The notes under the pieces were generated by a model. That model did no database searches, was not told where the DNA came from, and saw only the letters and a program-made list of their open reading frames with translations. Below, in pieces: positions 16,013 to 44,532 of a stretch of DNA of 64,000 nucleotides. The translations under genes and the position numbers were made by a program. This DNA comes from Candidatus Woesebacteria bacterium GW2011_GWB1_39_12 (GTDB lineage Bacteria > Patescibacteriota > Microgenomatia > UBA8517). Location: assembly GCA_000993405.1 (NCBI GenBank), contig LBWB01000007.1, positions 8,383-72,382 on the forward strand. The letters are read 5' to 3'. How positions within the stretch are numbered: position 1 is the stretch's first letter; every line of letters starts with the position of its first letter.

Positions 16013-16070
16013 TGAGTCCCGTAAGCTAACGCGTTAAGCGAGCCGCCTGGGGAGTACGAGCGCAAGCTTA

Positions 16071-16102
<32 letters not shown>

Positions 16103-22497: not shown

Positions 22498-22559
22498 AGT
22501 AATTTATTATATATCAGGGGGTTGGAGAAAGAAGAGGGAAACAAACTCGTTGGTTATGG

Positions 22560-22922
22560 CTACCGCCGGAGAATTTCTGCTAGTTTATCAATAAAATCTT
22601 GTGTCTCTTTTGGGTGGGTATATATCCAGTAGGTGGCTGTACTCCCAACGCAGAGAAACGTAAGAAAAGCACTCACAGCAACTATGGCAGCCGATTTTCC
22701 TTCACCGGGTTCTGGTTGGTCTGGAATCACTTCTTTCGATATTTCTGTAGGGTCAAGTTCGTGCATAAAAAACTCGTAGTAAATTATAGGATTAATTGAG
22801 TTCGATGTCAAATTGTGGTAAATTAATCGTACTCGGGTGGTTAGTTCACCGGTTAGAACGCTTACCTGATGACAAACGAAGTTTGACATAACAAAAATTG
22901 CAAACGGGGGCACGTAGTTCAC
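22560..22922 (-). CDS. Possible small membrane protein; overlaps the tRNA-Ile fragment and gene
   Basis: 120-aa ORF with one TM. The overlap with tRNA sequence makes it doubtful. Confidence 0.25.
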   Translation of the reverse strand: MNYVPPFAIFVMSNFVCHQVSVLTGELTTRVRLIYHNLTSNSINPIIYYEFFMHELDPTEISKEVIPDQPEPGEGKSAAIVAVSAFLTFLCVGSTATYWIYTHPKETQDFIDKLAEILRR

Positions 22923-23760: not shown

Positions 23761-24063
23761 CTATAAGTCTGATATTAACGCAGACAGTGAATGCCTTGGT
23801 GTAAGTTGCCGAAGAAGGACGCACATGGTAGCGATATTCGTCGGGGAGGAGCCACGATCCTGTGATCCGGCGGTGTCCGAATGGAGAAATCCGACCGAGT
23901 TCATACTCGATCACTCCGTGATAAAAATAATTTACGCAAGTAAGTTGTATAGTCGCGGTAGAGGGAACCGTCCAAACTGAAACATCTAAGTAGGGCGAGG
24001 AAGAGAAATCAATAGATATTCCGTCAGTAGCGGAGAGCGAAAGCGGAAAAGCCCAAACCCGCC

Positions 24064-24242
24064 CGTGCGTAGCACTGGAAGTTCCAATTTCCAATCACCA
24101 ATTTCCAAATAATTTCAAATTTCAAATGACAAATTTTCAAAACATTTCTAATCTTAAAGGAGTTTTGAGTTTTTGATTTTGAATTTCGAGTTTGTTTGGG
24201 ATTTGGAATTTGGGTTTTGGAATTTCTCATGCTGCGCATGAG
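24064..24242 (+). repeat. IVS-like element B2 (23S helix-9 region)
   Basis: The 3' hairpin is ctcatgctgcgcatgag. The two halves are complementary (ttccaatttccaa / ttggaatttgg). Confidence 0.55.
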
Positions 24243-24427
24243 TGGGGGTTGTAGGAGCCCGATGTGGGAGTCGACTTGGTAGCAGAATTATCTGGAATGG
24301 TAGATCATAGAGAGTGAAAATCTCGTATGCAAAATTAAGTCGACCTCTAGGGATTTCCTGAGTACCACGATTTAAATCTTCGTGGGAAGCTGGGGGAGTC
24401 ATCCTCCAAGGCTAAATACAACTTGCA

Positions 24428-24468
<41 letters not shown>

Positions 24469-24523
24469 GGGCGAGACGCCCAGTGAAATAGAACCTGAAA
24501 CTGTTTGCGGACAAACCGAGAGA

Positions 24524-24682
24524 GCCTTCGAACAGGAAATTTCAAAAGACAAATAACAAATTACAAACAAGTTCCAAATAACAGAACCCAATATATAGTT
24601 TTAAAAAGTTTTGCAATTTGTGAATTAATTATTGTTTGTATATTGGAAATTGGTAATTGGAGTTTCCCGCTCGGAGAGCGGG
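24524..24682 (+). repeat. IVS-like element B3 (23S helix-25 region)
   Basis: It follows cagtgaaatagaacctgaaac. The 3' hairpin is cccgctcggagagcggg. Confidence 0.55.
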
Positions 24683-24916
24683 TGATCTCGTGCCTATTGA
24701 AGAATGAGCCGGCGAGTTACCGCGTAGCGCATAGTCTAACCGAGTCTGACTCGGGGAGGCGTAGGGAAACCAAGTCTGAATAGGGCGATTAGCGCGAAGT
24801 GGTAGACCCGAAACCGGGTGATCTATCCATGAGCAGGGTGAACCCCGACGAAAGTCGGGGGGAGGCCCGAACCGGTGTAAGTTGCAATTTGCTCGGATGA
24901 CTTGTGGATAGGGGTA

Positions 24917-24950
<34 letters not shown>

Positions 24951-25179
24951 CCCGAAAGGTCTATAGGGACCGTGGTACGTAAGGTGTTGCCGATGGTAGA
25001 GCTACTGAATGGGTAAGCGAGGGTAACCGAGTTTACTCAATCAAACTCCGAATAGCGGTAAACATTAACGTACTAAACAGTCGCATCGGGCTAAGCTGAT
25101 GCGGCGAAAGGGAAACATCCCAGACTCTCAGCTAAGGCCTCTAAATTACAGCTAAGTTTCAAAGGAAGTTCACGTCCGT

Positions 25180-25230
<51 letters not shown>

Positions 25231-25300
25231 CAGCTCACTGGTCGAGGTTGTGGGCGCCGAAGATTTATCGAGGATAAGCTGTATGCCGAAGCTGGAGATG

Positions 25301-25506
25301 CCTGTTCGTAGAACAGGAAATTTCAAATAATAAATGCCAAGTAACAAACCCTTCGATTTTACTCAGGGTCCTGAGCAGGTCGAAGGACAAATTCCAAATA
25401 ATAAAATCCCAATGAATAAAAAAGTTTTTAGATTTTAAGATTTGTGATTTAAATTTTGTTTGTAAATTGGATATTGAAAATTGGAGTTTCCCGCTCTGCG
25501 AGCGGG
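25301..25506 (+). repeat. IVS-like element B4 (23S helix-45 region)
   Basis: 5' hairpin cctgttcgtagaacagg; 3' hairpin cccgctctgcgagcggg. Confidence 0.55.
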
Positions 25507-25746
25507 TGTGGTAGGGGAGCGTTCCGTATCCAGTGAAGTTAAGCCGTAAGGCTTGGTGGAGGATACGGGAGTGAGAATGCCGGCATGAGTAGCGTACTAT
25601 CCCGGAGAGAATCCGGGACACCGAATGCCCGAGGATTCCGTCGCGAGGTTCGTCCCCGACGGGTTAATCGGTACCTAACCTAAGGCCAAATGGCGTAGGG
25701 GATGGATAACTGGTCAAAATTCCAGTATTTATTTTGAATCGAAAGC

Positions 25747-25904
25747 CCTTGTGCTTTGCACAAGGAAATTACAATAAACAAACACCAATTTCCAAACAAA
25801 TTCCAAATTGCAATTAAGAAAAATAAAATAATTGTGATTTGTTAATTAATATTTGTTTGTAATTTGTAAATTGTGTTTTGTGATTTTCTCGCGCAGAGCA
25901 CGAG
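25747..25904 (+). repeat. IVS-like element B5 (23S, domain III region)
   Basis: Its 5' hairpin ccttgtgctttgcacaagg and 3' hairpin ctcgcgcagagcacgag are almost identical to the ends of 16S element A1. Confidence 0.55.
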
Positions 25905-26979
25905 GTAATTGGGGGTTGACTGGATAGGATGGTTGAAGCCTCATAACGATTTGGGGTGTAAGTTATAAGATAGTGTCAGCAGGAAAATCCGCTAATACGT
26001 TTAATCAAGTAGCGATGCAGAGTCTTGCGCAAGCAAGACAATTTCATCCCATTCAATCTACAAGAAAAGACTCGCAGTGAGATTCAAGGTAAGCCGTACC
26101 GCAAACCGACACAGGTGGGCTGGTCGAGAAGACTAAGGTGATCGAGAGAAAGAGGTTCAAGGAACTCGGCAAAAAATCTGGACGTAAGTTCGCAAGATGT
26201 CCTCCCTGAAAAATCTTCGGATTTTTTAGGGTACAACAAAAGAGTGCTAACCGACTGTTTATCAAAAACACAGGTCCGTGCAAAAGCGAAAGCTAAGGTA
26301 TACGGGCTGACGCCTGCCCAGTGCCGGTAAGTGAAGGGGATGGGTTTTACGGATTTATCCGTAAGGCCTTGAACTCAAGCTCCGGTAAACGGCGGCTTTA
26401 ACTATAAGAGTCCTACGGTAGCGAAGTTCCTTGTCGTGTAAGTTACGACCCGCACGAAAGGCGTTACGAGTTAGCAACTGTCTCGAGCCTCTACTCGGCG
26501 AAATTGCGTTGGCTGTGAAGACGCGGCCTACTTCCACCAGGACAAAAAGACCCCGTGGAGCTTTGTTTTGTGCGAGCCAATTGTTTAGAGTAGGAGGGAC
26601 CCTGAGAGCAATCGAAGGGGACACTGAAACACCTCCCTTTGGAACGTGGCAAGACTTACCTAACGTCCTTGCAAACAGGTCGAGGAAAAGTGCTAGGTGG
26701 GCAGTTTTACTGGGGCGGTACCCTGCCAAAAGGTAACGCAGGGGTACAAAGGTTGGCTTAGCACGGATGGACATCGTGCTGAATGTATAAAGGCATAAGC
26801 CAGCTTGATAGCGACTGCGACGGCAGAAGCTAGTACGAAAGTAGGTCTTAGTGATCCTCCGATTGCCTAGTGATAGGCACGGAGCTTAACGGATAAAAGC
26901 TACCCCGGGGATAACAGAGTAGTCGCACCCGAGAGTCCATATCGACGGTGCGGTTCGCTACCTCGATGTCGGCTCACCG

Positions 26980-27010
<31 letters not shown>

Positions 27011-27023
27011 GGTCTGTTCGCCC

Positions 27024-27068
<45 letters not shown>

Positions 27069-27502
27069 GAGTCCGATAACATATCGGACTGACACCAAGC
27101 GGTCTCATCCCTTGACTGACTGAAATACACATCGAAGGATTAGTAACTAATTTGTTATCAACAATCGTTTATAAGGATATATTAAACGGTTTAATTTAAA
27201 TATTTAAATTTGATCTTTTTGTCTAAATAGGAAAGAGGGAATATAAATCTGACTATATGCTGGAAACTCCGGTGTATCCTGTGCTACTCTTGAAAAAGAG
27301 TGAAAAAGCAACAGGTGCGGACAATCAGCAGGAAAGGCCTCATTAGATATGGAATTATCTAATGGGGAATCCTCAACGACTATACGTCAGAATACGTTCA
27401 GTTTACATGAACGTATAAGATATAGTCTGATCTCCATGGCGACTTGGAGGGTTGAAAATCGTTCAGCCGTAAAAACAAGCGGAGTATTGATATACTAAAT
27501 GT
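27069..27502 (+). mobile_element. ORF-less insertion of about 430 nt in 23S just upstream of the sarcin-ricin loop, equivalent to about E. coli position 2590; putative intron
   Basis: The conserved gtcgtgagacagtt ... cggactctatccggtgg...cagtacgagaggacc is interrupted by AT-rich sequence that contains no ORF of 60 aa or more. Confidence 0.45.
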
Positions 27503-27630
27503 CGGACTCTATCCGGTGGAAGCGTTCGAGTCTTGAAGGGAGCTGGCCTCAGTACGAGAGGACCAGGCCGGGGGAATCCCTGGTGTGCCGGTTGTGGCAT
27601 CAGCCGCAACGCCGGGTAGCTACATTCCCA

Positions 27631-27662
<32 letters not shown>

Positions 27663-27847
27663 GCCCCCCCTAAGATTAGGACTCGTTATTAGATCCCTAG
27701 AAGAATACTAGGTTGTTCGACAGGCGGTGGAAGTCGCGTAAGCGATTAAGCCTACCTTGTACGAATCGATCGATTTCAGACTTACTTACTCCTAATGAAG
27801 TATTGTATAAGCTCACTTTATGGTCTTTAGATGAGAAGCAAAGCTTT

Positions 27848-27966
27848 GGTCTGGTGATGATAGCGGTGCGGAACTACCTGATCCCATTCCGAACTCAGTC
27901 GTCAAACACACCTGCGGCGACGATAGTAAGCGGGCAACTGTTTGCGAAAATAGCACGTCGCCAGGC
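27848..27966 (+). rRNA. rrf: 5S rRNA
   Basis: ggtctggtgatgatagcggtgcggaactacctgatcccattccgaactcagtcgtcaaacac...gcacgtcgccagg resembles bacterial 5S. Confidence 0.65.
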
Positions 27967-28165
27967 TAAAGTTTTGCTCTGATAGTTAGGCAAATTTTAG
28001 ATCATCTGATTTAATCCGCTTTCAGCGGATTTGCGAAAATAAGCATAGCTTGGCACCGCTATGCGTTGTAAGTGATCTCTGCTTTGCAGAGCTCCACTTG
28101 GCCAAGTCTGACTTGGTAGCACGTCGCCAGGCTAAAGTTTTGCTTGAACATTAAATTGTAGAAAG

Positions 28166-29317
28166 GTGGTCCCGATTGAATCGGGGCGGTTATGCAAAGT
28201 GGTTTCGAAAAAACATCCAAAAACTTCAAGTAAAAAACGTGGGGAACCTCAGACAATGGAGGAGCTTCTTTCTCTTTATGGAGGTCCGAAGTTTTCTTTT
28301 TCTGTGGGAAATATGATCAAGGGTAAGATTATTCGGATCGAACCACAAAGAGTTGTAGTTGATATTGGAGGGAAAAGTGAAGGAATTGTAGCCGAGAAAG
28401 CTTTTAATGAGGCAGGAGAATTTATTAAAACCCTTAAAGTCGGGGATGAAATAGAAGCAAGAGTTCTGGTTTCCGAGACAAAAGACGGTTATACAATTCT
28501 ATCTTTAAGACGCGCAAAAGAAGAGGCTGTTTGGAAGAGAATTGAGGAAGCTCAAGAAAAACAAACGCCAATATCAGTTGAGGGAAAGGGAGTAACTTCC
28601 GCAGGAGTAACGGTTGATATCGAAGGAATGACAGGGTTCATTCCTGCTTCCCAGCTGGGTAAAGAAGTCTCGGAGAATCTGCAAAGATTAATCGGTCAGA
28701 AATTTGAGGTTATTGTTATTGATTTTGATAAGACGGTAAAAAAAATAATTCTTTCGGAGAAAGAGGTTTCTGAAAAAGAAGAAGTAGCAGCTGCAAGAAG
28801 TGCTATAGAAAATATTAAAGAAGGTGAAACTTTTGAAGGAGAGGTTACGACGATTTTTGACTTCGGAGTTTTCGTTAAAATAGAATGGGGTAGCGGTAAA
28901 ACAAAGATTCCACTTGAAGGTTTGGTGCACATTTCTGAACTTTCTTGGGAAAAGGTTAGTTCTCCTAATGATGTGGCTACTCCCGGAGATAAAGTGAAAG
29001 TCAAAGTTATAGGTAAGAGAAATGGTAAGCTTGCCTTTTCAATAAAACAGGCCTTGGAGGATCCATGGATAAAGGTTGAAGAGAAATATAAAAAGGACAA
29101 AAAAGTGGGGGCAAAAATTACTCGGGTGACGGATTTTGGTGTATTTGTTCAGTTAGAGAGCGGCATTGAAGGTTTAATACATATGACAAAAATTCCGCCT
29201 GGTAAAAAGCTTGTCAGAGGTGACGCGGTAGATGTTTATATAGAGGAAATTGACAAGGAAAATCGAAAAATTGCGCTGGGGTTAGTGTTAACAGAAAAGC
29301 CGGTGGGGTATAAGTAA
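28166..29317 (+). CDS. rpsA: 30S ribosomal protein S1 (short, about four S1 domains); the likely start is the ATG near 28246
   Basis: Repeated S1 OB-fold signatures (GKIIRIEPQRVVVDIGGKSEGIV; GEVTTIFDFGVFVKIEWG; AKITRVTDFGVFVQLESGIEGLIHMTKI). Confidence 0.75.
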   Translation: MVPIESGRLCKVVSKKHPKTSSKKRGEPQTMEELLSLYGGPKFSFSVGNMIKGKIIRIEPQRVVVDIGGKSEGIVAEKAFNEAGEFIKTLKVGDEIEARVLVSETKDGYTILSLRRAKEEAVWKRIEEAQEKQTPISVEGKGVTSAGVTVDIEGMTGFIPASQLGKEVSENLQRLIGQKFEVIVIDFDKTVKKIILSEKEVSEKEEVAAARSAIENIKEGETFEGEVTTIFDFGVFVKIEWGSGKTKIPLEGLVHISELSWEKVSSPNDVATPGDKVKVKVIGKRNGKLAFSIKQALEDPWIKVEEKYKKDKKVGAKITRVTDFGVFVQLESGIEGLIHMTKIPPGKKLVRGDAVDVYIEEIDKENRKIALGLVLTEKPVGYK

Positions 29318-29445
29318 GTGATTAGTGATTGGATATAATTCTTCTTGATGGCTAAGTCTTTATTGTTATTTGTTTGTCAGCAATATATTCACTTATTGAA
29401 ATCATTTGTAAATAGTCCTAAGATGAATTTGTCCGGCTGAATTCT

Positions 29446-30621
29446 ATGGCTAAAAGTAATTTTCAAACTAAATCTTCCTTTATGAGTTTTCTTCTAGTTG
29501 CTTTTCTTCTCGTGGCCTTATTTACAAGTGTTTCTGTTGTAAAACAAAAACAGGATTTGCGAAGCAGGGCCCAAGTTGAATGTTTTGTGTGGCCTATCTT
29601 TGGTCCTGTCTCTCAAAGAGCGGAGTCGCCATCGCTTCAGGATGCTGTGAATTCCCATAATTGTGTGCGTGTGAGAAAGGGAACTTACAATCTTACTGGA
29701 CCTTTAACTTTATGGTCAAATAAAACCTTGAAAGGAGAAAGTAGAGACGAAACTATACTCAAAGCAAGTGGAGCCTGGCCCAATAATGGTTTAGAAGGAG
29801 TTGTACAAATGATTCGCAATGATGTCTCTGGAGTTAACGTCTCAAATTTAACAATTGATGCCAACCAAATTTCCACCCACGCTATAGTTATTCGGGGAGC
29901 TGTTGTGGATAGTGTTAGAGCTAAAAATGGTAAATGTACAGGAATTACAATACCGGGTCCTGCAGCTATAGTTAATAACAGTATTATCGAAAGAAACGGT
30001 AATACTTGTCCTGTGGCACCACCCGGAGCAGGAATTTATGCCGACGGAACCGATGATAAAAGTAAAGTTCCTCCTCAATATGCGCCTCGGATTACCAATA
30101 ATACTATTAGAGACAATTACGGACCGGGAATTGATATTAATACAGTTTGGAATGGCGTTATACAAGACAATACTATAACCAATAATAAAGGATGGGCAGG
30201 AGTTAGTTTGTATTCTTCCAGTTACTGGAACATTAGTGGAAATATAATCAATCAACCCGCAACTAGTGACTATCAGAAATATCACCCACGTTGTGCAGGA
30301 GGACCTAATGGTGCGAAATCTGCCGGGATCTTTCTTTGTGAAGATTATGACCAGAACGAGGGACAACCCAATACTGTAACAATTTATAACACCATAGAAA
30401 ACAATAGGTCAGCAAGTTGGTATGGAATATTATTAATAGGGAATGATGAGCAAACACCTTATCTGGTACCTCGCTTCAATACTATTAAGAATAACAACGT
30501 TTTTGGGTCAACACATGGTTGTGCGGACGATTTCAAGGTGGGTCAATGGATGGATGGAGCCAATACCTGGACGAACAATAATTGTAGCGGTACCTCAAAT
30601 ACTCCACCCTCTTATTATTAG
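29446..30621 (+). CDS. Secreted right-handed parallel beta-helix repeat protein (pectate-lyase fold)
   Basis: Signal peptide followed by repeated NNTIxxNxGxGI units (NNSIIERNGNTC; NNTIRDNYGPGIDIN; DNTITNNKGWAGVSL). Confidence 0.6.
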   Translation: MAKSNFQTKSSFMSFLLVAFLLVALFTSVSVVKQKQDLRSRAQVECFVWPIFGPVSQRAESPSLQDAVNSHNCVRVRKGTYNLTGPLTLWSNKTLKGESRDETILKASGAWPNNGLEGVVQMIRNDVSGVNVSNLTIDANQISTHAIVIRGAVVDSVRAKNGKCTGITIPGPAAIVNNSIIERNGNTCPVAPPGAGIYADGTDDKSKVPPQYAPRITNNTIRDNYGPGIDINTVWNGVIQDNTITNNKGWAGVSLYSSSYWNISGNIINQPATSDYQKYHPRCAGGPNGAKSAGIFLCEDYDQNEGQPNTVTIYNTIENNRSASWYGILLIGNDEQTPYLVPRFNTIKNNNVFGSTHGCADDFKVGQWMDGANTWTNNNCSGTSNTPPSYY

Positions 30622-30724
30622 TTATCCAATAAACCATATTTATATTGCTACAGAATTCGTTTGTACTTAAAAAAACCGCCTCAGTTATTGACAATTATTC
30701 AGTATGACAATATAACAATAAGCA

Positions 30725-32083
30725 ATGGTTAAAACTCGCTCTCATTTTGTTTGCCAACAGTGCGGTTATGAGTCATCCCGTTGGTTCGGTAAGTGTCCCG
30801 AATGCGGAACTTGGGGAAGTGGAGTGGAAACTGTGGCTTCAGATAAAAGGCAAGAGGTAAAAGGTAAAAGAGGAACAGCCTCAAAACCGGTTTCTTTGAC
30901 CTCAATTCCTTCAAAGGCGACTTCAAGAACTTCAACTAAGATATCGGAATTAGATAGGGTTTTGGGTGGAGGATTGGTTCCCGGCCAGGTTGTCTTAATT
31001 GCGGGGGAACCGGGAATCGGAAAGTCAACAATTTTACTTCAACTTGCGGACAAACTCGGAGACTTCTTGTATGTTTCAGGCGAGGAGTCGGTTAGTCAAA
31101 TAAAAATTAGGGCAGAGAGGTTGGGGATTAAAAGTAAATCGATACAAGTACTGGAAGAGACGGATGTGGATGGAATAGTAGAAGCGGTTGAACAGATGAA
31201 CCAAAGAACAAGTAAACCGAAAAACGATTCAACAGTTCAACGGGTAATCAATTTATCAGGTATTGTTATCGATTCGATTCAGACCATGGCAACTTCTGAT
31301 TTATCCGGCATGGCGGGATCCGTCGGTCAGGTTCGGGAATGTGCGTTTCGTCTGGTTCGGTTGGCAAAATCGCAAAATATTCCAATATTTATGGTCGGTC
31401 ACGTTACTAAACAAGGTTCGGTTGCGGGTCCTGCAGTACTCATGCATATTGTCGACACGGTTTTGTGGTTTGAGGGCGATAAAAGCCTGACTCTCAGGCT
31501 TCTGCGGGCGGTTAAGAATCGTTTTGGTCCTACTGACGAGGTAGGGGTTTTTGAAATGGAAGATAAAGGTTTGATATCGGTTAGTGATCCGGAAAAGCTG
31601 TTTCTGACTCTTGATAAAAAAACTACGCCAGGCAGCGTGCTTACTTCAATTCTCCAGGGCACAAGACCGCTTCTTGTAGAAATTCAAAGTTTGGTTGTTC
31701 CAACTAAAATGGCTTTTCCAAAAAGAATTGCTCAAGGAGTTGATGTAAGACGTTTTGAACTTCTTTTAGCAGTACTTCAGCGCCGCTCAGGTCTTCCGCT
31801 TTATGAATTTGACTGTTTTGTGAATATTGCAGGCGGAATAACCATTAAAAATGATCCTTCGGCTGATTTGGCGATATGCTTATCTGTCGCTTCAGCCTAC
31901 TTTGACAAGACCCTACCCAAGGGTTCGATAGCAATCGGCGAGGTAGGACTATTGGGGGACATACGTGAGGTTATCGCTCAAGAAAAAAGAACCAAAGAAG
32001 CAAAGAGATTAGGATATAGAGTAATGATTACAAATAGAGAAGTTAGATATCTTCAGGAAGCGATTAGAAAATACCTGAAGTAA
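30725..32083 (+). CDS. radA: DNA repair protein RadA/Sms
   Basis: N-terminal zinc ribbon CQQCGYESSRWFGKCPECGTWG, Walker A GEPGIGKST, the KNRFG motif, and a C-terminal Lon-like domain. Confidence 0.9.
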   Translation: MVKTRSHFVCQQCGYESSRWFGKCPECGTWGSGVETVASDKRQEVKGKRGTASKPVSLTSIPSKATSRTSTKISELDRVLGGGLVPGQVVLIAGEPGIGKSTILLQLADKLGDFLYVSGEESVSQIKIRAERLGIKSKSIQVLEETDVDGIVEAVEQMNQRTSKPKNDSTVQRVINLSGIVIDSIQTMATSDLSGMAGSVGQVRECAFRLVRLAKSQNIPIFMVGHVTKQGSVAGPAVLMHIVDTVLWFEGDKSLTLRLLRAVKNRFGPTDEVGVFEMEDKGLISVSDPEKLFLTLDKKTTPGSVLTSILQGTRPLLVEIQSLVVPTKMAFPKRIAQGVDVRRFELLLAVLQRRSGLPLYEFDCFVNIAGGITIKNDPSADLAICLSVASAYFDKTLPKGSIAIGEVGLLGDIREVIAQEKRTKEAKRLGYRVMITNREVRYLQEAIRKYLK

Positions 32084-32136
32084 CTGGTGAACGGATAAAC
32101 GGCTTAACTGATGAACTGGATGAATTGTCGGACCTT

Positions 32137-32500
32137 TATTTTTTAAGATTTTTGGCAGTATTTGCAATCAGATAGTTTATTTCTTTTGGTAGTTGATCTA
32201 ATAAATCCTTAATTTCTACATATTCTTTGTCTGCTACTAGTTTTCTAACTTTGGCTTTCTCTAGCCAGTGAATACTTTCAAAAGCAGAGCCTCTAGCTTG
32301 GTAAAAGAATTTCATCTTATCTTTTTTGAAATATCGACCTTCACCCTCAATTATATTTGCGGCAATTGAATCTATAGATCTTACAAACTGTTCACCAAAG
32401 GTCTTTTGTGCTAAAAAGCTCCATTTTATTACTATAAACCAAACCTTATCCGATAAAAATGAAGCTAATTTGTAAGCAGTAATTTTATCTGGGGTGATCG
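32137..32500 (-). pseudogene. Degraded four-helix-bundle protein gene of the 23S-rRNA-intervening-sequence-protein family (TIGR02436-like); no ATG and an N-terminal deletion
   Basis: My own minus-strand translation gives ...KVWFIVIKWSFLAQKTFGEQFVRSIDSIAANIIEGEGRYFKKDKMKFFYQARGSAFESIHWLEKAKVRKLV...* with the family signature S-I-x-x-N-I-x-E-G-x-G-R...D...F...A-x-G-S-x-x-E. It is absent from the ORF track because it has no Met start. Confidence 0.5.
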
Positions 32501-33295
32501 TTATTTTCAGTTTATCAGTTATCTGTTCAGCAGTTCAACAGTTATTCCCAACTTATCCACAAACTTTTTTCCTACCAAATAACTGGCGAAAGTTAGATTC
32601 GGAAATTTTTAGACTTAAACTATGGGAGGATATACTATATATAGTAGTTAGATTATAGGGTTTGACAGAGTTGACAGATGGTGTTAGACTAAATTTGTTT
32701 AAAAATCGCATGTTTTATTGCTCCCTTGCGGGACGGGTGGTGTGTAGGGCAGGCATACTACCCGTTCCTTGAGGGTTCAATCCATGCGATTTTTTTATGG
32801 GAAGACTTCTCGGGTGGCCCCGCACAGCTCTTATTTCTCGCCACGAACTACGTTTGTGCTCTCGAATTGCGAGTGTGCGGGGTAAATGTGTAGGCGAAGT
32901 CCCGCACAATCCTGTAAGGATCTGTGCGGGAGCAGGCATACTACCCGTTCCTTCAGGCTAGAAAAAGCTCGGCTCTTTTTTTATCGCACAAAAAAACCGA
33001 GTCTAACTCGGCTCCACTTGTCTCTAGGCCCTCCTAATTTTAGCACTCGGCTTTTCAATACTATTCGTATACGCCTCGTGCTGCAATTTTAGAAGGGCAG
33101 AGCAGGCAATAGACAAGTATTATCACTATCAGACTATTATCTTAGTTAAGTGTTTGTCAAGTGCCTCTTGTCGCCGAAAGTTTAATTTCTCATTCCTTGA
33201 AAATCCTATAAGAGGTTAAAATAAGCTTGTGTACGGAAACTTGACATGCTTATAACTCTCACATATAATTGGCTTCGAACTGCTCCCAAGTGTGA

Positions 33296-34192
33296 ATGAA
33301 AAATAAGTTTTTCAAACAAGGTGTGATTACTGCTCTTCTTTTGCTCACTTCAGTTTTTTTGGGAAGAATTTTCGGTTACGAAGCTTTTGCCGAAAGTTCA
33401 GTAACTCCGCCAAGCTTTCCGACATGTTCAGAGAAGATATTTGTTGCTGATGGTGATTGGGCTCATTATGATTCCGGGATCCATGGGATCCCTGGGGTAG
33501 GTAACTTCGAAGGAAGCGATGATGTTTATTCGTTGGGTTCTGGAAACTTTTTACAGTGTTTTTGTCCGGCCGGCGGGGGAGAGGGAACTCAAACTAACTG
33601 GTGGGATGTAGAGAATCTTAATCAAGAAGATATTAATTCATTCTTATCACAGAGTTGGTTTTTTGAATCAAGTGGTGATGGATGGAATTTATTAGACGAT
33701 CCATACCTAGTTAAGAATTCAAACTTTAGTTGTGCAGTACCTACCCCGACACCTCCGCCTTCAGGTGGTGGGGGTGGTGGTTCGCCTGGAGCACCTGTTT
33801 GTAATGCACCCGCAGTTACAAAAGCACCTCTTTATTCGAGTGCGAATTTATCAAGAATCGATAGCGATAGTATTAAAATAAGCTGGATAGTAACAGATGA
33901 TCGTGCTCAAAGGTACGGTATTTACTATGGTACGAATTCGGATAAACTTTCTTGGTATACCGAAGTTAAAGGACACGATACAAATGAGGCAATAATTAAT
34001 TTAGTACCCCAGGGTAATATATTTTTTAAGGTTTGTAGTATTGGAGAATGTGGAGATCAGGTGTGTGGGAGTGATATTCCTACAGTTCTGGGGGTGGCCA
34101 AAGGATTACCAGCTACAGGAACCATTGCACTTACTATTTTAGTCTTTGCACCAATTGGATATTATTTATATAGGCGCTTCAGGTTAGTATAA
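33296..34192 (+). CDS. LPXTG-anchored cell-surface protein
   Basis: Signal peptide, Gly/Pro linker (PTPTPPPSGGGGGGSPGAP), and a C-terminal LPATG sorting motif followed by a hydrophobic stretch and RRFRLV. Confidence 0.7.
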   Translation: MKNKFFKQGVITALLLLTSVFLGRIFGYEAFAESSVTPPSFPTCSEKIFVADGDWAHYDSGIHGIPGVGNFEGSDDVYSLGSGNFLQCFCPAGGGEGTQTNWWDVENLNQEDINSFLSQSWFFESSGDGWNLLDDPYLVKNSNFSCAVPTPTPPPSGGGGGGSPGAPVCNAPAVTKAPLYSSANLSRIDSDSIKISWIVTDDRAQRYGIYYGTNSDKLSWYTEVKGHDTNEAIINLVPQGNIFFKVCSIGECGDQVCGSDIPTVLGVAKGLPATGTIALTILVFAPIGYYLYRRFRLV

Positions 34193-34268
34193 AGATATTA
34201 GGATATTAGGAAAAGTTTTGCTAATTACTTAATATCTTAATATCATAATCACTTGATATCCTCAAAAT

Positions 34269-35009
34269 ATGCACCCTAAAGGAATAATTTATCAAAACGG
34301 ACGTTCAGGTACACATGGTGAAATAATTCTGTTTTTACCTGTCATTGCCCGTTTGGTCTTTCATTTCATTCGTGGCTTAGGAGCGGGTCTGATTGCCTTT
34401 TCTTTTTTAACCTTTGCTTTTTCATTCGGACCGGTTATTCAGCAGGAGATATCATACAATCTTGAAAAAACCGGTCTGAAGACGCAGGAGGAGTCAGTTA
34501 ATGAAGGTTTTTCTTTAAGTATTGCAGAAGCGGATAGAATTCTGGCGGTACAGAAAGAAGCGCAAAGCTATGAAGTTAATTCCTATTTTTCCGTTGTTAT
34601 TCCCACAATTGATGCTAAAGCTAATGTAATTGCAAATGTAGATGTGTCAAATAAATCGGATTATCTTGAGGCGTTAAAGAAGGGGATCGCTCATGCGAAA
34701 GGCACTTACTTTCCGGGACAGGGCGGAAGAATATTTCTTTTTTCCCATTCAACGGATTCTCCTTTAAACTTTGCCCGCTACAATGCAATTTTTTATCTTT
34801 TAAAGAAACTTGAAAAAGGTGACACAATTATTGTCTTTTTTGCAGACAAAAAATATGAATACGAGATTGTCGACAAAATCATTGCTGATGCCGGTGATAC
34901 GTCTTGGCTAATGCCCAAGAAAGAGGGAGAGGAATTGATACTCATGACCTGTGATCCGCCGGGTACTACATGGAACAGACTTTTGGTTGTCGCGAAGCCA
35001 AAGGCATGA
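34269..35009 (+). CDS. Sortase-family transpeptidase
   Basis: N-terminal TM and the catalytic LMTC motif (EGEELILMTCDPPG) near the C-terminus. It is adjacent to its putative LPXTG substrate. Confidence 0.65.
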   Translation: MHPKGIIYQNGRSGTHGEIILFLPVIARLVFHFIRGLGAGLIAFSFLTFAFSFGPVIQQEISYNLEKTGLKTQEESVNEGFSLSIAEADRILAVQKEAQSYEVNSYFSVVIPTIDAKANVIANVDVSNKSDYLEALKKGIAHAKGTYFPGQGGRIFLFSHSTDSPLNFARYNAIFYLLKKLEKGDTIIVFFADKKYEYEIVDKIIADAGDTSWLMPKKEGEELILMTCDPPGTTWNRLLVVAKPKA

Positions 35010-35171
35010 CTCTAATCAATAGTTGACAAGTCGGGGAACTTAGGAATACAATACAGTTGTTCCTCGGAAAATATTCACTTCCGCGATTATTCAAATGGAC
35101 TTTTAAGCGTTTGATTTAATATTTACTTTTGTGAGAAAACTTATTAATTGGCTTTCGAAACTTAAGCTATT

Positions 35172-36485
35172 ATGCCTATAAAGAAGAAAGATAAAGATCC
35201 CGGTTTAGATTTACCTCAGAAGGAAACTATTTCGGCAGCAACGTTTACCCAACCACCAGCTTTTACCAGAGAACCTCAAAGATCTTTGGTTGTTGACGAC
35301 CGAGTACTTCCTGATTCAGGTTTACCTACCGAATTTGTTGAGGGAGTTTTGGATATTGCCCAAGAAGGATCGGGTCTTTTACGTCCCAATTTTCATCCCT
35401 CTGATCATGATATTTATATTTCCGCAAGCCAAATAAGAAGATTTAATTTAAGAATTGGAGATGTTATTGGAGGTCAGGCCAGGCACCCCAAAGAAAACGA
35501 GCGCTACTGGGGACTTTTGAAAGTGGAGAATGTAAACGGAGATCCTGCTGAAGAGCTTTTTCAAAGGCCATCTTTTGACGATTTGCTTGCAGTATATCCT
35601 AATGAACATATCGTTCTCTCTACAGAGAAGGAAGTATTGACCACACGAATAATTGATCTTATTGCACCAATTGGATTTGGACAAAGGGGTTTAATTGTTT
35701 CTCCGCCAAAAGCAGGTAAAACCTGGCTAATCAAAGATATTATTGCCGGAATTGCCAAGAATTATATAGTAGGTAAGAAACAAGGGGCGAAAGCTAAAAG
35801 GAAAACAGAGGTACATTTAATGGCCGTACTTATTGGAGAACGTCCGGAAGAAGTAACCGACATAGTAAGACACATGAAGGAAGTTACTGGCGGTCAAGGC
35901 GAGGTTGCTGCTAGTAATTTTGACGAACAAGCAGACGCACAAACTGCTGTGGGAGAACTTGCTCTCGAGAGGGCTAAAAGACTGGTCGAGAAAGGATATG
36001 ATGTTGTTATTGTTCTTGACTCCATAACCAGAATGGCGCGGGCTTATAACTTAGCTCTTCCAACCTCGGGTAGGACTCTATCTGGTGGTTTTGACCCTGC
36101 CGCGCTTTTTCCTGCTAAGAAATTTTTTGGCGCAGCGAGAAAAATTGAGGATAACGGTTCTCTAACAATTATTGGTACGTGCCTTGTTGATACAGGATCC
36201 CGAATGGATGATCTCATCTATGAAGAGTTTAAAGGTACCGGTAATATGGAATTGCATTTGGACAGAAGACTTGCCGATAAAAGGATTTTCCCGGCAATTA
36301 ATGTCACAAGAAGCGGTACAAGACAAGAAGAACTTCTCTACGGCAAAGATGCTTTGCAGCAAATTTATACTTTAAGACGAATGCTTGATATGGTTTCTGA
36401 AGATGAAAGAACAGAGACGCTTCTGGAAAGGCTTAAAAAGTCTGAATCAAATGCGGACTTTTTAGAAAGCCTCAAAACTGCTTAG
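35172..36485 (+). CDS. rho: Transcription termination factor Rho
   Basis: RNA-binding CSD-like region (RFNLRIGDVIGGQAR), Walker A GQRGLIVSPPKAGKT, and the Rho Q/R loops. Confidence 0.85.
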   Translation: MPIKKKDKDPGLDLPQKETISAATFTQPPAFTREPQRSLVVDDRVLPDSGLPTEFVEGVLDIAQEGSGLLRPNFHPSDHDIYISASQIRRFNLRIGDVIGGQARHPKENERYWGLLKVENVNGDPAEELFQRPSFDDLLAVYPNEHIVLSTEKEVLTTRIIDLIAPIGFGQRGLIVSPPKAGKTWLIKDIIAGIAKNYIVGKKQGAKAKRKTEVHLMAVLIGERPEEVTDIVRHMKEVTGGQGEVAASNFDEQADAQTAVGELALERAKRLVEKGYDVVIVLDSITRMARAYNLALPTSGRTLSGGFDPAALFPAKKFFGAARKIEDNGSLTIIGTCLVDTGSRMDDLIYEEFKGTGNMELHLDRRLADKRIFPAINVTRSGTRQEELLYGKDALQQIYTLRRMLDMVSEDERTETLLERLKKSESNADFLESLKTA

Positions 36486-36681
36486 TCTCAGGTACCTTCC
36501 ATTATAGTAATTGGGTACAAAAAGTTCACTTCGCCATTATTTGACCCCGCACGAAGTTAGCATGAATATGCTCCCAAATTTTTATTCAACTTTAATTAAT
36601 GCTTGATTAAATATTTCGAGTCTGACTTCACTTAAACTCAAACTCGGATATTTAAAAATTAGATGCCCATTTGGTGCTGGG

Positions 36682-37947
36682 TTGACCCACAACTCTTCAT
36701 GTGTTATCTTCTTGAGTGTCACTCAATTTTTGGCTATGTTGAAACTACCCTTCAAATTGAAAGTGCGTAAGGCTTTGAAAGAAAAGGAACCATACTCAAA
36801 CGGCCTCTCTGATTCTCAGGCTAAAGAGTACAGAATTCTGACCTTTTTTGAGGACGTATTACCCAGATTAAACGAAATCTTCTCTGAATTTAAGAATTTT
36901 GCCTTCGAACTTACGAATTATCTTGCAAGAATTCTTCACCTGTCTTTTTTAAGGTTTGAAATGGGCAAGAGTTTATTTGCTGCTATTTTGTACCGACAGC
37001 GGGGTAAGTATGCTAAAAGATTTGTTCACTCGGGAATGGCAGGCCTCGCTGCTTTGGGAGTAATGATTGCACCAGTTATTGCAAAGGAATTTCCGGGGAG
37101 AACTTTGGATCCGTGGGATATTCCGTCTCCATCATCGGTACTTTCGGCATCTGTTGAGGAAACAGGGATCTCAACAGATATATCTTCAAAACCCAGAGAT
37201 AAAATTATTGAATACGAAGTGCAAGAAGGAGATACTGTTTCGGGGGTTGCCGATAAGTTTGCTGTCTCGCAGGATACGATTCTTTGGCAAAATGATTTAT
37301 CAGCGAGAGACCGAATAAAACCGGGTCAGACTTTGGAAATCTTGCCGGTATCGGGAATTTCACATAAGGTCGCTAAAGGCGACACAGTATATTCCATTGC
37401 CAAAAAGTATGATTCTTCACCTCAGGCAGTTGTGGACTTTCCTTTTAATACATTTGTTAACGATGAAACCTTTGAACTCGCAATAGGTCAATCGATAATT
37501 GTTCCGGACGGTATTAAGCCGGAGGAGAGACCTACTGCACCTCGTACCAGGAGAATTACTCCGGATGCAGGTACCGTTGTTGCATCAGGCGCTTTTGTCT
37601 GGCCTGCTAGCGGAACAATTTCACAAAACTTTGTTTGGTATCACAAGGGGATTGATATCGCAAATCGAGCCGCTCCGGATATACTGGCTGCGGATGCCGG
37701 AACTGTTATAACTGCCGGGTGGCCGGATAATTATGGGTACGGTAATAGGGTAGTAATAGATCACGGTAACGGCTATAGAACTCTATACGGTCATCTATCA
37801 AGAATATATGTTACTCCCGGGCAAACTGTGGTAAGAGGCGCAGCGGTTGGTAAAATGGGGTCAACTGGTCGTTCTACAGGCATTCACCTTCATTTTGAAG
37901 TTACCAAGGAAGGTGCATATCTAAACCCGCTCAGCGTGCTACGTTAA
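36682..37947 (+). CDS. LysM-domain M23 family metallopeptidase
   Basis: Two LysM motifs (YEVQEGDTVSGVADKF; HKVAKGDTVYSIAKKY) and the M23 motifs HxxxD (IDHGNGYRTLYGH) and HLHFEV. Confidence 0.8.
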   Translation: MTHNSSCVIFLSVTQFLAMLKLPFKLKVRKALKEKEPYSNGLSDSQAKEYRILTFFEDVLPRLNEIFSEFKNFAFELTNYLARILHLSFLRFEMGKSLFAAILYRQRGKYAKRFVHSGMAGLAALGVMIAPVIAKEFPGRTLDPWDIPSPSSVLSASVEETGISTDISSKPRDKIIEYEVQEGDTVSGVADKFAVSQDTILWQNDLSARDRIKPGQTLEILPVSGISHKVAKGDTVYSIAKKYDSSPQAVVDFPFNTFVNDETFELAIGQSIIVPDGIKPEERPTAPRTRRITPDAGTVVASGAFVWPASGTISQNFVWYHKGIDIANRAAPDILAADAGTVITAGWPDNYGYGNRVVIDHGNGYRTLYGHLSRIYVTPGQTVVRGAAVGKMGSTGRSTGIHLHFEVTKEGAYLNPLSVLR

Positions 37948-38046
37948 TTTTCAATATCAATTTTTTAATTTTAATTCAATTGATAATTATTTAATTAGTT
38001 AATTCATTGAAAATTAGTAATTAAAAATTTAAAATTAAGATGTTTT

Positions 38047-38108
38047 AGGGCCGTTAGTATAGTCCCGCCAGAGGCGGGCAGGGGTAATGTAAACCCTTAC
38101 GAATATTC
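38047..38108 (+). other. tRNA-like fragment (GGGCCGTTAGTATAGT...) immediately upstream of tRNA-Ala
   Basis: It shares its first 6 nt (GGGCCG) with the downstream tRNA and contains the hairpins cccgccagaggcggg and gggtaatgtaaaccc. No complete cloverleaf could be drawn. Confidence 0.3.
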
Positions 38109-38180
38109 GGGCCGATAGGTAAACGGTATACCGTACCCTTCGCATGGGTAAGTTCTGGGTTCAATTCCCAGCCGGTCCAC
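38109..38180 (+). tRNA. tRNA-Ala (anticodon CGC)
   Basis: Acceptor GGGCCGA/CCGGTCC with G3:U70, D-arm GGTA-AACGGTA-TACC, anticodon stem TACCC/GGGTA with loop TTCGCAT, T-arm CTGGGTTCAATTCCCAG. Confidence 0.65.
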
Positions 38181-38239
38181 AAAACAGTTTCGTCCAGAGG
38201 ACGATCAATCTTTGGCTGGCGATTCTGCACGGTCCACTT

Positions 38240-38842
38240 TTAGGGAATGGGCGAGATGATTTTGGGTGGAGAGAAGACAATAATTAGAAGAGTAATCAAG
38301 GCGATAAGAGCAATAGTTATAGAAATTGTGACAAGTCCAAATCTTTCATTCGATAGAAGAAAAATTGGTTTTTTAGTTACCTCAGGATTTGTCGATGGTT
38401 CAAGAATTGACGGGTGAGAGAGGGGTGGTGTTGAAATAGAGTCAATATTTGTTGAAAGAGTAAGGAGCTTATCATATTTAGAAGGTCTTTGAACTGTAAA
38501 ATAACGGGGCACTATCAGTTTAGACTTTTCTTCCAGGGGTCGATCGATCTCCGACTTAATCTGATCCGTAACTGTGGCCGTGTCTGCTATTTCTATTTTT
38601 GTAGTTTTTTCATCCGACTTACTTTTAAGATCTACTTTTGCTAATTCATCTCTTTCATATTTACTCCCAAAAAGATTGTCCAGATCTTCCTTCTTAAAAT
38701 ATCTATGACCTCCCGGGGATCTATATACTTCAACTTTTTCTCTTTTTTCCCAACGACGTAACGTGTCTATGGAAATTCCTAGATAGTTTGAAGCCTCTCC
38801 AATACTAAGTAATTTTTTTGCTAAATCTGCCCTTACTTTCAT
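38240..38842 (-). CDS. MerR/excisionase-type HTH DNA-binding protein with a C-terminal membrane anchor
   Basis: LLSIGEASNYLGISIDTLRRWEKREKV forms an HTH_17-type helix-turn-helix. The C-terminal hydrophobic helix reads LVTISITIALIALITLLIIVF. Confidence 0.55.
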   Translation of the reverse strand: MKVRADLAKKLLSIGEASNYLGISIDTLRRWEKREKVEVYRSPGGHRYFKKEDLDNLFGSKYERDELAKVDLKSKSDEKTTKIEIADTATVTDQIKSEIDRPLEEKSKLIVPRYFTVQRPSKYDKLLTLSTNIDSISTPPLSHPSILEPSTNPEVTKKPIFLLSNERFGLVTISITIALIALITLLIIVFSPPKIISPIP

Positions 38843-38960
38843 TTGAGGGTATTGTTTAGAATTTGCATAGATTTGTCAAGTGTTTAAGTGATAAGTCAAT
38901 ATTCCAAATAGCGGGAAGATATCACTTAATGACTGGAGGATTATTCAATCTGTCAAGAAA

Positions 38961-39722
38961 TTATGACAGGCCGGACTTATGTCTTTTTCTTTCGGAAATA
39001 CGATTTAAAAGCAACGTAAATTCAAAAAGTAAAATGAGTGGCAAAGAAAGAAATATATCAGCAATGATTGAGTCGGGAGGAAGAAGAAGGGCAAAGATAA
39101 AAGAACCTAGATAAATCCAGAGGCGCTTTTTACTTAAGGCGTGATGCTTGATGACTCCGATACGCAGAAGAAGTAATAAGACGATAGGAAATTGGAAACC
39201 AATTCCCATAAAAGCCGATGTTAGAAAGACGGTTGTTAAAAGGCCGCTGATATCTAAAATGTTGCCGATACCCAAAGAGATTGACCTGGCTAAAAAAATC
39301 TCGATTTGCCATTTCATGATGACCGCTCCAAGGGAGAACCCCATTAAAAAAAGAAAGATAGAGAAAGGCACGAAGCTAACCACTGTTTTAAACTCTTTTT
39401 TTCTAAGCGCTGGTTTTAAAAAATGCAAAACTTGAAGAATAAAGAGAGGTAGAGCTATAACAAGCCCTGTAACAATACCACAGCTTATGGCAAGGTTGAT
39501 AAACTGGAAAGGTGAGGTAAAGACAATATTAATGCCTTCGAGTGAAAGGGCGCCAATAAAGAATCTAATTATATCTTCATAAAAAGCAAAACCAATTAGT
39601 GTTGAAGCTGCGAAAATTGAAAGCGTAAAAAAGATTCTTTTTCTGACTTCCCTAAAGTAATGTGAATATTTGTTTGTTATTGCAGTTAACTCAGAAGATT
39701 TGAAAGATTTGATATTTTCCAC
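38961..39722 (-). CDS. tatC: Twin-arginine translocase subunit TatC
   Basis: Six predicted TM helices; N-terminal ...HLEELRKR-like region (HYFREVRKRIFF). Confidence 0.7.
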   Translation of the reverse strand: MENIKSFKSSELTAITNKYSHYFREVRKRIFFTLSIFAASTLIGFAFYEDIIRFFIGALSLEGINIVFTSPFQFINLAISCGIVTGLVIALPLFILQVLHFLKPALRKKEFKTVVSFVPFSIFLFLMGFSLGAVIMKWQIEIFLARSISLGIGNILDISGLLTTVFLTSAFMGIGFQFPIVLLLLLRIGVIKHHALSKKRLWIYLGSFIFALLLPPDSIIADIFLSLPLILLFEFTLLLNRISERKRHKSGLS

Positions 39723-39742
39723 GGCAGTAGCGCTCTAATAAA

Positions 39743-39911
39743 TTTAACCTTCAACATTTTTTTCTTGTTCATTATCTTTTGAAGCTTTTTTAAATTCTTT
39801 GACTGCGTCTGCCAAACCTTTAAAAAGTTCCGGGATTTTCTTGCCTCCGAAGAGCAAAATGACTACGGCTGCGATAATAAGTAGTTCAGTAGTTCCTAGT
39901 GATCGAAACAT
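39743..39911 (-). CDS. tatA: Twin-arginine translocase subunit TatA/E; shorter than 60 aa and absent from the ORF track
   Basis: My own translation gives [55 protein letters not shown], a TM helix followed by FGxKKxPE. Coordinates are within about 2 nt. Confidence 0.6.
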
Positions 39912-39917
39912 TTTCTA

Positions 39918-40121
39918 TTATGTCACCTCCTCATTTTTTTTACTTGGTTGATCGTCTTCAATAGCTTCGGTAAAGTTCTTTTTTATTTTTTTGATCTCTT
40001 TGAGACTTTGCCCTGCAGTTCTACCAAACGAGATAAATGCTTTTGCACCAAAAAGTAATATCAAAATTGAAACAAGAATAATTATCTCTGTCGTACTGAT
40101 ATTTTTAAGAAAGCCTGGCAT
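39918..40121 (-). CDS. Second TatA/E-like protein
   Basis: IIILVSILILLFGAKAFISFGRTAGQSLKEIKK has TatA-like topology. Confidence 0.55.
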   Translation of the reverse strand: MPGFLKNISTTEIIILVSILILLFGAKAFISFGRTAGQSLKEIKKIKKNFTEAIEDDQPSKKNEEVT

Positions 40122-43500: not shown

Positions 43501-44532
43501 GGCAGAAGGTGAAACAGAAGGACTTTCACTGGCAGATGGGGAGAGTGAGGCAGAAGGAGAGACAGAAGCTGATGGTGACACTGATGCGCTAGGCGAGACA
43601 GACTCCGACGGTGAAAGAGAAGCACTAGGGCTTACTGATGGCGAAATAGAAGCAGATGGAGATATAGAAGGACTTTCACTAGCAGAAGGAGAGAGTGAGG
43701 CAGAAGGACTGAGAGATGCAGATGGACTTAAAGAAGCTGATGGACTGACAGAGGCCGATGGTGACAAAGAAGCACTGGGTGATACCGATTCCGATGGCGA
43801 TACCGAAGCGCTAGGTGATAGTGATGCTGAGGGAGAAAGCGACGCGCTGGGACTCAAAGATGCAGATGGGGAAATACTGGCAGATCCTTGCACCGGTTTA
43901 AGCGCGATGACAACTTCAACAAGTGGGCCGGCAGAGCTACTGCGTACCCAAGATATACTTTGGTTAGCAGGGGGAGTCACGGGTATTGTACTCATTCCCG
44001 AGAAGGTTGTTGCACCTGCAACCGTTACTCGCTCTGTTTGGCCTGCTGTTGCAGTAGAAGTGAGTGTTCCTCCTGTACTGGCCTTCGCGATCATGGCGTC
44101 AACAACCCATGCGTTATCTGTGATTGTTTGCAAGCTGACCGGGGTTGCCGAAGAAGTAGCAGGATTTATAGCTAAAAATGTACTTGCTTCCGGCGCTTGC
44201 TGTGCCACACCGCTTAAGGCGATTGCTCCGACTGAAGTCTCGGTATTAGTATCTGTACTTGCAAAAGTTGCCTGGACGGTGTATGTACCGGTACCAGGCA
44301 ACTGGGCAGACAGCATATAGAAAATGCCGGCGGCATTTACTCCGGCAGCGTTATTGGCACTTTCGGCCGAAGTCATTGCTACACCGTTGAAATTTATGCC
44401 AGTTGGAGGGTTAAAGCCTGCCGCATAGGCAACCACCATATCGTACGCGGAGCCAATCGTGATATCTACACTCGGGCTGGCTGAAGCAGAGGCTGCTGCT
44501 ATTCCTGCCGCTGCGACGAATGCAATTGCCAT
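40594..44532 (-). CDS. Giant (1312 aa) secreted or surface protein made of about 150 tandem SPSAS[VLIE] hexapeptide repeats, with distinct N- and C-terminal domains
   Basis: Continuous minus-strand ORF with a signal-like N-terminus ([18 protein letters not shown]), a non-repetitive domain of about 200 aa, an 18-nt periodic repeat core, and a unique C-terminal module. The plus-strand ORFs are mirror artefacts. Confidence 0.75.

Follow-up and report, generated by a model that had tools for sequence, protein, structure and literature searches.

Intervening sequences (IVSs) of ribosomal RNA (rRNA) genes are already known, as are the four-helix-bundle protein family that some of them encode and the occurrence of this family outside rRNA genes. 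In the IVS of Coxiella burnetii, three to four tandem GACAGAT heptamers lie directly before the start of the S23p gene, inside a stem with its RNase III cleavage site at the first repeat, and S23p is probably not made in vivo (PMC4990558). In the Candidate Phyla Radiation (CPR), some rRNA insertions contain PF05635 open reading frames (ORFs) (PMC11270868). The related protein Avd forms a basic, nucleic acid-binding barrel of five subunits. The IVS-encoded protein has so far been discussed mostly as an oddity of rRNA genes, and to our knowledge no function has been assigned to it in some thirty years. Here we analysed a gene of this family in a 64,000-nucleotide (nt) stretch of Candidatus Woesebacteria bacterium GW2011_GWB1_39_12 (contig LBWB01000007.1, positions 8,383 to 72,382; hereafter the window), where it lies on the minus strand beside radA and between two inverted arrays of tandem octamers. 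This locus is probably an IVS-type cassette situated outside the rRNA genes, with a four-helix-bundle gene as its cargo that was recently disabled at the start codon.

The minus-strand frame containing the peptide ...SIDSIAANIIEGEGRYFKKDKMKFFYQARGSAFESIHWLEKA..., which a first-pass annotation of the window had pointed out, was confirmed by translation and is open from 32534 to its TAA codon. Its family assignment also held in a check with hidden Markov models (HMMs), where both PF05635 (E 3.6e-19, 69.4 bits against a cut-off of 33.8, profile positions 2-105 of 106) and TIGR02436 (E 3.9e-20, 72.1 bits against a cut-off of 24, profile positions 2-107 of 109) matched above their cut-offs. A database search with the frame returned 48 relatives, mostly of 121 residues and with identities of up to 70%; the alignment to the 121-residue relatives (49-70% identity) was free of gaps, and all 25 clade-invariant columns were kept. 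An AlphaFold2 monomer model built on the alignment of the relatives reached a predicted local distance difference test (pLDDT) score of 92.5, with helices at 19-35, 40-65, 70-96 and 102-129. When this predicted model was submitted to Foldseek, the top match was 2GSC (template modelling (TM) score 0.94, root-mean-square deviation (rmsd) 1.1 Å), followed by 2RLD (TM 0.84; rmsd 1.1-2.8 Å across the two structures) and then by the Avd structures 4DWL (TM ~0.83) and 8UB7. A sequence-profile search also retrieved 2GSC and 2RLD from the PDB, and a single-sequence search against PDB sequences gave no match for the window protein. The frame is a complete PF05635/TIGR02436 gene without truncation, and its product is predicted to be an up-down four-helix bundle. 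About 11 residues of the first helix pair had been thought to be missing, and the full HMM coverage, the gap-free alignment and the four modelled helices therefore show this claim to be wrong. The ORF list of the window and the gene callers of other assemblies report just a 59-residue ORF from an internal Met (MKFFY), because no in-frame ATG, GTG or TTG is present upstream of that codon.

The absence of a Met start, as claimed at first, is real: ACG stands at the position homologous to the start codon of the relatives, whose N-terminus reads MI(K/E)xxKITAYK where the window has K-I-T-I-T-P-D-K-I-T-A-Y-K. The clade relatives start with ATG (L001, L004 and L008), GTG (L003, L006 and L094) or TTG (L093). 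We tallied start codons in 165 family loci by seeking a canonical codon within -12 to +4 codons of the conserved N-terminus and found 149 ATG, 12 GTG, 3 TTG and a single locus with none, which is the window. The frame, including the ACG, is identical in four independent assemblies, none of which has a canonical start upstream, and therefore the ACG is not an assembly error. The sequence of one close relative (L176) stops before the start position. All of the eight orthologues are exactly 121 codons long without indels; dN is 0.11-0.43 and dN/dS about 0.06-0.2, with saturated dS, and the window branch is not accelerated. Dating of the start loss by dN/dS gave no date, since dS is saturated against every relative. 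Because the orthologue lengths are intact and the window branch is not accelerated, the loss is either recent or tolerated. The start codon is mutated and everything else is intact, and the copy was most likely silenced recently or is translated weakly. The gene is not an old, eroded pseudogene, and the initial description as a decayed relic does not fit a full-length frame in which one codon is affected. The absence of a Shine-Dalgarno site, which might be taken as another sign of decay, was dropped as uninformative, because such a site is present in just 8 of 31 window genes.

The gene is enclosed by two arrays, located with Tandem Repeats Finder (TRF), of which the downstream one is the reverse complement of the upstream one. 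The 3' array occupies the 52-nt spacer from the radA stop (32081-32083) to the stop of the four-helix-bundle gene. Thus, the flanking IVS-type hairpins that the first-pass annotation proposed to look for were found as inverted octamer arrays. The duplex of the arrays alone comprises 30 bp (-30.3 kcal/mol, z = -5.7), none of 500 shuffles was equally stable, and the terminal stem is present both in the minimum-free-energy fold and in the centroid fold when the RNA of the entire cassette is folded. The array layout is shared by all clade relatives, while the unit sequences drift. A motif search of the 64-kb window found this repeat type nowhere besides the two flanks of the cassette. No match was obtained from Rfam, at gathering and permissive thresholds, in the flanks or the upstream non-coding island, and PADLOC and PHROGs gave no useful matches.

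To place this layout in the family, we surveyed 80 loci from representative genomes (Bacteroidota, Ignavibacteriota, Patescibacteria, Peregrinibacteria and others; 45-58% identity) and 80 loci from metagenomes. Of 90 genome loci, 64 had period-8 arrays on both flanks and 84 had them on one flank or both; the corresponding numbers for 71 metagenome loci were 55 and 70. Overall, about 80% of the flanks have arrays (160 loci, many phyla), compared with about 4% of control pieces (23 of 612 random pieces taken from the same loci). The dominant period is 8, with a median of about four units per arm; the upstream consensus is A-T-(T/G)-G-(T/C)-T-N-N (core ATKGYT) and its complement is found downstream. 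The arms of one locus belong together: cognate arms pair at -37.6 kcal/mol versus -29.1 kcal/mol for non-cognate arms (p = 1.5e-8), and their units share 6.54 of 8 positions versus 5.55 after permutation. Moreover, an ATTGTT-type array is followed by an AACAAT-type array 78 times and the order is reversed 2 times. Base pairing alone is insufficient for such a fixed polarity, because the inverted arrangement reads alike on both strands. The conserved feature is a motif in fixed inverted arrangement, not a perfect stem.

Most of the surveyed copies reside in housekeeping operons. Both neighbours are co-oriented with the gene in 39 of 56 genome loci and 32 of 36 metagenome loci, with gaps to the co-oriented neighbours of about 80 and 45 nt. 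The partners include citE/citF (twice), carboxyltransferase/biotin carboxylase, aconitase/prpD, leuS/MFS transporter, ftsH/5'-3' exonuclease and GH3/dxr. An rRNA gene was found in or near none of the 12 strongest loci and in none outside the clade of the window, and the association of the family with type I restriction-modification systems was not seen in the 10 loci checked. Relatedness of the proteins cuts across phyla. The survey shows that rRNA copies are a minority and that members of the family normally reside in repeat-flanked cassettes within ordinary operons. In the searchable literature, which is incomplete, so that an earlier description is possible, we found no description of the octamer-array layout, its core, its polarity, its location within operons or its ORF-less counterparts; likewise, no account of flanking arrays outside Coxiella was found there, including for XCC0516 and BT_0352.

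The array hairpin exists both with and without the gene. In L177, whose radA is 71% identical to that of the window, the spacer after radA has no ORF and contains just the two arrays, arranged as a hairpin whose loop is about 35 nt long. Next to it come the TTATCCACA motif and the upstream non-coding elements that are also present in the window, and another member of the family, flanked by arrays of its own, lies in L177 between the rRNA operon and the S1 gene. In L178 (radA 70% identical), the radA site is occupied by a divergent member of the family (33% identity), which is oriented the other way and has 7-nt arrays. Other loci contain twelve more array hairpins that lack an ORF. ATTGTT-type octamer hairpins without an ORF (loops of 3-145 nt; L129, L047, L143, L154, L036, L043 and L082) sit within a few kb of ORF-bearing cassettes in unrelated phyla.

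These features suggest how an IVS-type cassette could work outside rRNA. In a transcript from either strand, pairing of the arrays would give a stem of about 30 bp, with the ORF in the enclosed loop of about 370 nt. By analogy with rRNA IVSs, this stem may be processed by RNase III, and it could insulate the ORF RNA from the surrounding transcription or release it. The start position is 5 nt from the foot of the stem, whose state may for this reason gate translation. Conservation of the ATKGYT core, together with the fixed polarity of the arms, suggests a sequence-specific factor that would recognize the arrays, and the most economical candidate is the encoded Avd-like protein, possibly as a pentamer. 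That the arrays pair in vivo, that RNase III cuts them and that the protein binds them are inferences, as is the expression state of the gene.

Several observations weigh against this explanation. The copy numbers of the two arms are uncorrelated (rho = -0.05), about 20% of the arm positions are mismatched without an excess of G:U pairs (118 sense versus 107 antisense, 334 transversions), and the fold of the whole cassette is no more stable than that of shuffles (z = -0.6). The conserved core and the fixed polarity would be equally compatible with recognition at the DNA level. The clade copies are antisense to their neighbours, unlike the usual co-oriented operon copies. Furthermore, ACG, ATA or ATC may support useful initiation in this genome, which is largely devoid of Shine-Dalgarno sites. 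This last point leads to the rather unlikely alternative that the gene is still functional, giving low but sufficient protein from a near-cognate start (ATA at -1, ACG at 0, ATC at +1 or CTG at -3). It would agree with the intact ORF that keeps every clade-invariant residue, with the lack of indels and of accelerated dN, with the fixation of the sequence in four assemblies, with the weak GTG and TTG starts of the relatives, and with initiation rules that may be relaxed where most genes are without Shine-Dalgarno sites. On the other hand, all but one of the 165 family loci keep a canonical start, initiation from ACG and AUA/AUC in studied bacteria reaches a small fraction of that from AUG, and an intact frame is equally expected soon after the loss of a start codon. 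The first-pass annotation regarded the gene instead as a decayed pseudogene from an rRNA IVS, which the ORF-less rRNA hairpins had once carried. The missing canonical start, the ORF-less hairpin insertions at classical IVS sites of the 16S and 23S genes of the window, the ORF-less array hairpins at the radA site of L177 and elsewhere, and the PF05635 ORFs in some CPR rRNA insertions (PMC11270868) are in line with this view. It is nevertheless improbable, and its "decayed" part is largely refuted by the full-length protein with its full fold in the model and by purifying selection across the clade; moreover, the gene holds a conserved slot outside rRNA, no coding remnant is found elsewhere in the window, and the rRNA hairpins consist of 7-nt units of opposite polarity.

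A further alternative, which we regard as doubtful but worth serious consideration, is that the arrays act at the DNA level, providing a mobile or invertible cassette with terminal inverted repeats or with platforms that have multiple binding sites, and that RNA pairing is a by-product. The hexamer core conserved across phyla, the polarity of 78 to 2 that pairing alone leaves unexplained, the arm mismatches without G:U bias and the uncorrelated array lengths are all in line with it, as are protein relatedness that crosses phyla and one chromosomal site that is found with different subfamilies, in both orientations and in an ORF-less state. However, the neighbourhoods examined show no association of the cassette with a transposase or recombinase, the repeats lie in an RNase III-cut RNA stem in the sole experimentally studied case (Coxiella), and the copies are strongly co-oriented with their host operons, which points to dependence on host transcription. 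The fold and the family relationship to Avd would also allow the gene to be the Avd accessory gene of a diversity-generating retroelement, but this is extremely improbable: no reverse transcriptase is found among the neighbours here or in any syntenic relative, and no direct repeat of at least 35 nt is present in 27000-40000, so that there is no template/variable repeat pair. For this locus the view is refuted by these two absences, unless a retroelement elsewhere in the genome acts in trans.

With the IVS-type cassette as the preferred explanation for the window, a wider generalization can be put forward more tentatively, as possible rather than probable. PF05635 genes and inverted octamer arrays may together form a widespread, undescribed class of hairpin-borne cassettes that colonize transcribed spacers, namely helix tips of rRNA, where they are known as IVSs, and far more often the gaps of operons. 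The array hairpin would be the basic unit and the pentamer a facultative cargo recognizing ATKGYT octamers, with the polarity reflecting recognition or propagation. The flanks share a conserved 8-nt unit in fixed polarity across phyla, and one site occurs with or without the gene. The vague question of the function of the protein can thereby be recast as cutting of the array stem in mRNAs by RNase III, binding of the pentamer to the octamers, and movement of the cassette. The scanned genome itself gains one correctly delimited, start-disabled gene.

Features of the window, with strand and remarks (rRNA insertions were placed by alignment to E. coli rRNA)
Feature	Positions	Strand	Remarks
16S rRNA gene	14853-16470		
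16S insertion at E. coli ~189-208	15024-15211 (listed span)		169 nt
23S rRNA gene	23764-27786		~1.1 kb of insertions including a group I intron
23S insertion at E. coli ~275	24061-24262		202 nt
23S insertion at E. coli ~547 (helix 25)	24533-24676	+	144 nt; classical IVS site; ORF-less hairpin
23S insertion at E. coli ~1163-1181 (helix 45)	25298-25505 (listed span)		190 nt
23S insertion at E. coli ~1406	25731-25806		76 nt
5S rRNA gene	27850-27966		
radA	30725-32083	+	Pfam; convergent neighbour, stop abuts 3' array; synteny anchor (L001-L008, L093, L094)
3' array	32082-32124	-	TRF unit AACTGATG x5.2 (tandem octamers, period 8); reverse complement of 5' array, CAGTT-type units on gene strand
PF05635/TIGR02436 four-helix-bundle coding sequence ("23S rRNA IVS protein", Avd-like)	32136-32501	-	121 codons + TAA at 32136-32138
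ACG aligned with the start codon of relatives	32499-32501	-	ATA (32502-32504) and ATC (32496-32498) on either side
5' array	32507-32543	-	TRF unit TCAGTTCA x4.8 (tandem octamers, period 8); minus strand AACTGTTG AACTGCTG AACAGAT AACTGAT AAACTGA; ends 5 nt before ACG
TTATCCACA	32553-32561	+	Host-side boundary motif just outside 5' array; only perfect DnaA-box match in 64 kb

The gene order past the 5S gene is an S1 protein gene, a beta-helix protein gene, radA and the convergent four-helix-bundle gene (Pfam), followed by a non-coding stretch of 800 nt and then a sortase substrate, a sortase, rho and an M23 peptidase. The four-helix-bundle gene, between radA and the non-coding region, had been described as far from the rRNA genes; it does lie outside them, yet the distance is relative, as the gene is situated 4.2 kb beyond the 5S gene and relatives share this linkage. 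The order 23S-5S-S1-radA plus the convergent gene recurs in Woesebacteria-like relatives with proteins 59-70% identical, and the gene thus holds a conserved syntenic slot rather than being a stray relic. In the radA region of L176 (radA 91% identical to the window, compared over 30725-32360), all 93 nucleotide differences of radA fall in the first ~600 nt, and identity is 100% over the remainder of radA, over the 3' array and over the last 74 codons of the four-helix-bundle gene. Either a mosaic that arose by recombination between strains or a chimeric assembly is suggested by this pattern.

The boundary motif TTATCCACA is conserved at -58 to -72 within the clade only, and is kept in L177 and L178. 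As a perfect DnaA box, TGTGGATAA was considered as a replication origin and rejected, being the sole perfect box without a cluster; it was also rejected as a part of the cassette, since it is clade-specific and persists beside the ORF-less and opposite-orientation states. In the adjoining non-coding island, divergent from the gene, a conserved promoter-like GGGTTTGACAGAGTTGACA...TAGACT is followed about 40 nt downstream by a long hairpin (32659-32800, plus strand, with the conserved region extending to ~33010). This hairpin (fold z -7.9) has an outer stem that covaries among relatives and an inner part without variation (GGGACGGGTGG...GGGCAGG...CTACCCGYTCC), and a T-run comes after it. The element has no Rfam match and probably represents a small RNA or leader that has escaped annotation. 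At this island, relatives carry ~300 additional nt that include a second conserved hairpin, which the window lacks. The island also contains a 26-nt unit duplicated 183 nt apart (32749-32774 and 32932-32957), 53 nt (33029-33081) that are 90% identical to 19771-19823, and 44 nt (32840-32883) that are 82% identical to 14674-14717, just upstream of the 16S gene.

The rRNA operon is unusually interrupted, as about 6.4 kb (16470-22908) separates the 16S gene from tRNA-Ile, tRNA-Ala and the 23S gene; this segment holds an ORF for a LAGLIDADG endonuclease (16798-17244) and, on the other strand, a gene resembling those for type IV secretion coupling proteins (20245-22497). A group I intron (27196-27449, 80 bits) near the 3' end of the 23S gene has no endonuclease ORF, and the 23S genes of relatives carry LAGLIDADG ORFs. 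Elsewhere, 40594-44532 on the minus strand holds a 1312-residue ORF in which many tandem repeats of 18, 36, 72 and 150 nt encode acidic Gly/Glu/Asp-rich units.

The hairpin insertions in the rRNA genes agree in position with a survey of CPR rRNA insertions (PMC11270868), and their folds gave z = -3.7 and -3.1. By TRF, they consist of 7-nt tandem units, ACAAAT-type in the 5' arm and ATTGG-type in the 3' arm, which is the opposite polarity to that of the cassette. A tblastn search for a coding remnant found none in these insertions or elsewhere in the window. Because of the period of 7, the opposite polarity and the lack of a remnant, we cannot link the rRNA insertions to the four-helix-bundle gene, and the idea that they once carried it is not borne out. 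The related statement that the genome is full of ORF-less IVS-like elements is true for the 16S and 23S insertions of the window, but it does not extend to the repeat type of the cassette.

Among described systems, the ORF-bearing 23S IVSs of Coxiella burnetii (with S23p) and Leptospira are the closest, since they encode the same protein family as the window gene. In both cases the ORF lies within a stem-forming inverted repeat. The Coxiella IVS also has short repeats just before the start (three to four GACAGAT units, compared with AACAGAT/AACTGAT units in the window), and IVS ORFs share a poor ribosome-binding context and a tendency to lose expression (PMC4990558). The terminal inverted repeats of the window cassette would likewise form an extended stem, which by analogy RNase III may process. 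However, the window copy is located outside the rRNA helices used by IVSs (23S helices 9, 25 and 45; 16S helix 10), is antisense to its neighbours and is inherited in a fixed chromosomal slot across the clade. The link to IVSs in the first-pass annotation therefore stands as to the architecture shared with Coxiella and the ORF-less hairpin of L177, but not as to a relic of IVS cargo. The ORF-less CPR rRNA insertions (PMC11270868) resemble the rRNA hairpins of the window, which lie at the helix-25 and helix-45 sites and have short tandem units in inverted arrays; these differ from the cassette in period (7, not 8), in polarity and in having neither an ORF nor a remnant of one.

With regard to the protein, XCC0516 (2GSC) and BT_0352 (2RLD) match it in profile and fold, and are products of non-rRNA genes without an assigned function. 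The accessory protein bAvd of the Bordetella phage BPP-1 (4DWL, 8UB7) has the same fold, but the identity is about 11% and the window has neither a reverse transcriptase nor template/variable repeats. The solved relatives 2GSC and 2RLD are pentameric rings, with pentamers reported for 2GSC and Avd, and the window protein was modelled as a monomer. Finally, the Correia elements of Neisseria are hairpin-forming miniature repeats in operon spacers which undergo RNase III cleavage in mRNA. They are similar to the present type in being inverted-repeat elements of transcribed intergenic spacers, and array hairpins without an ORF exist in the present type as well. What sets the arms described here apart is that they consist of tandem octamers sharing a conserved core; in addition, a protein gene is usually present in the loop.

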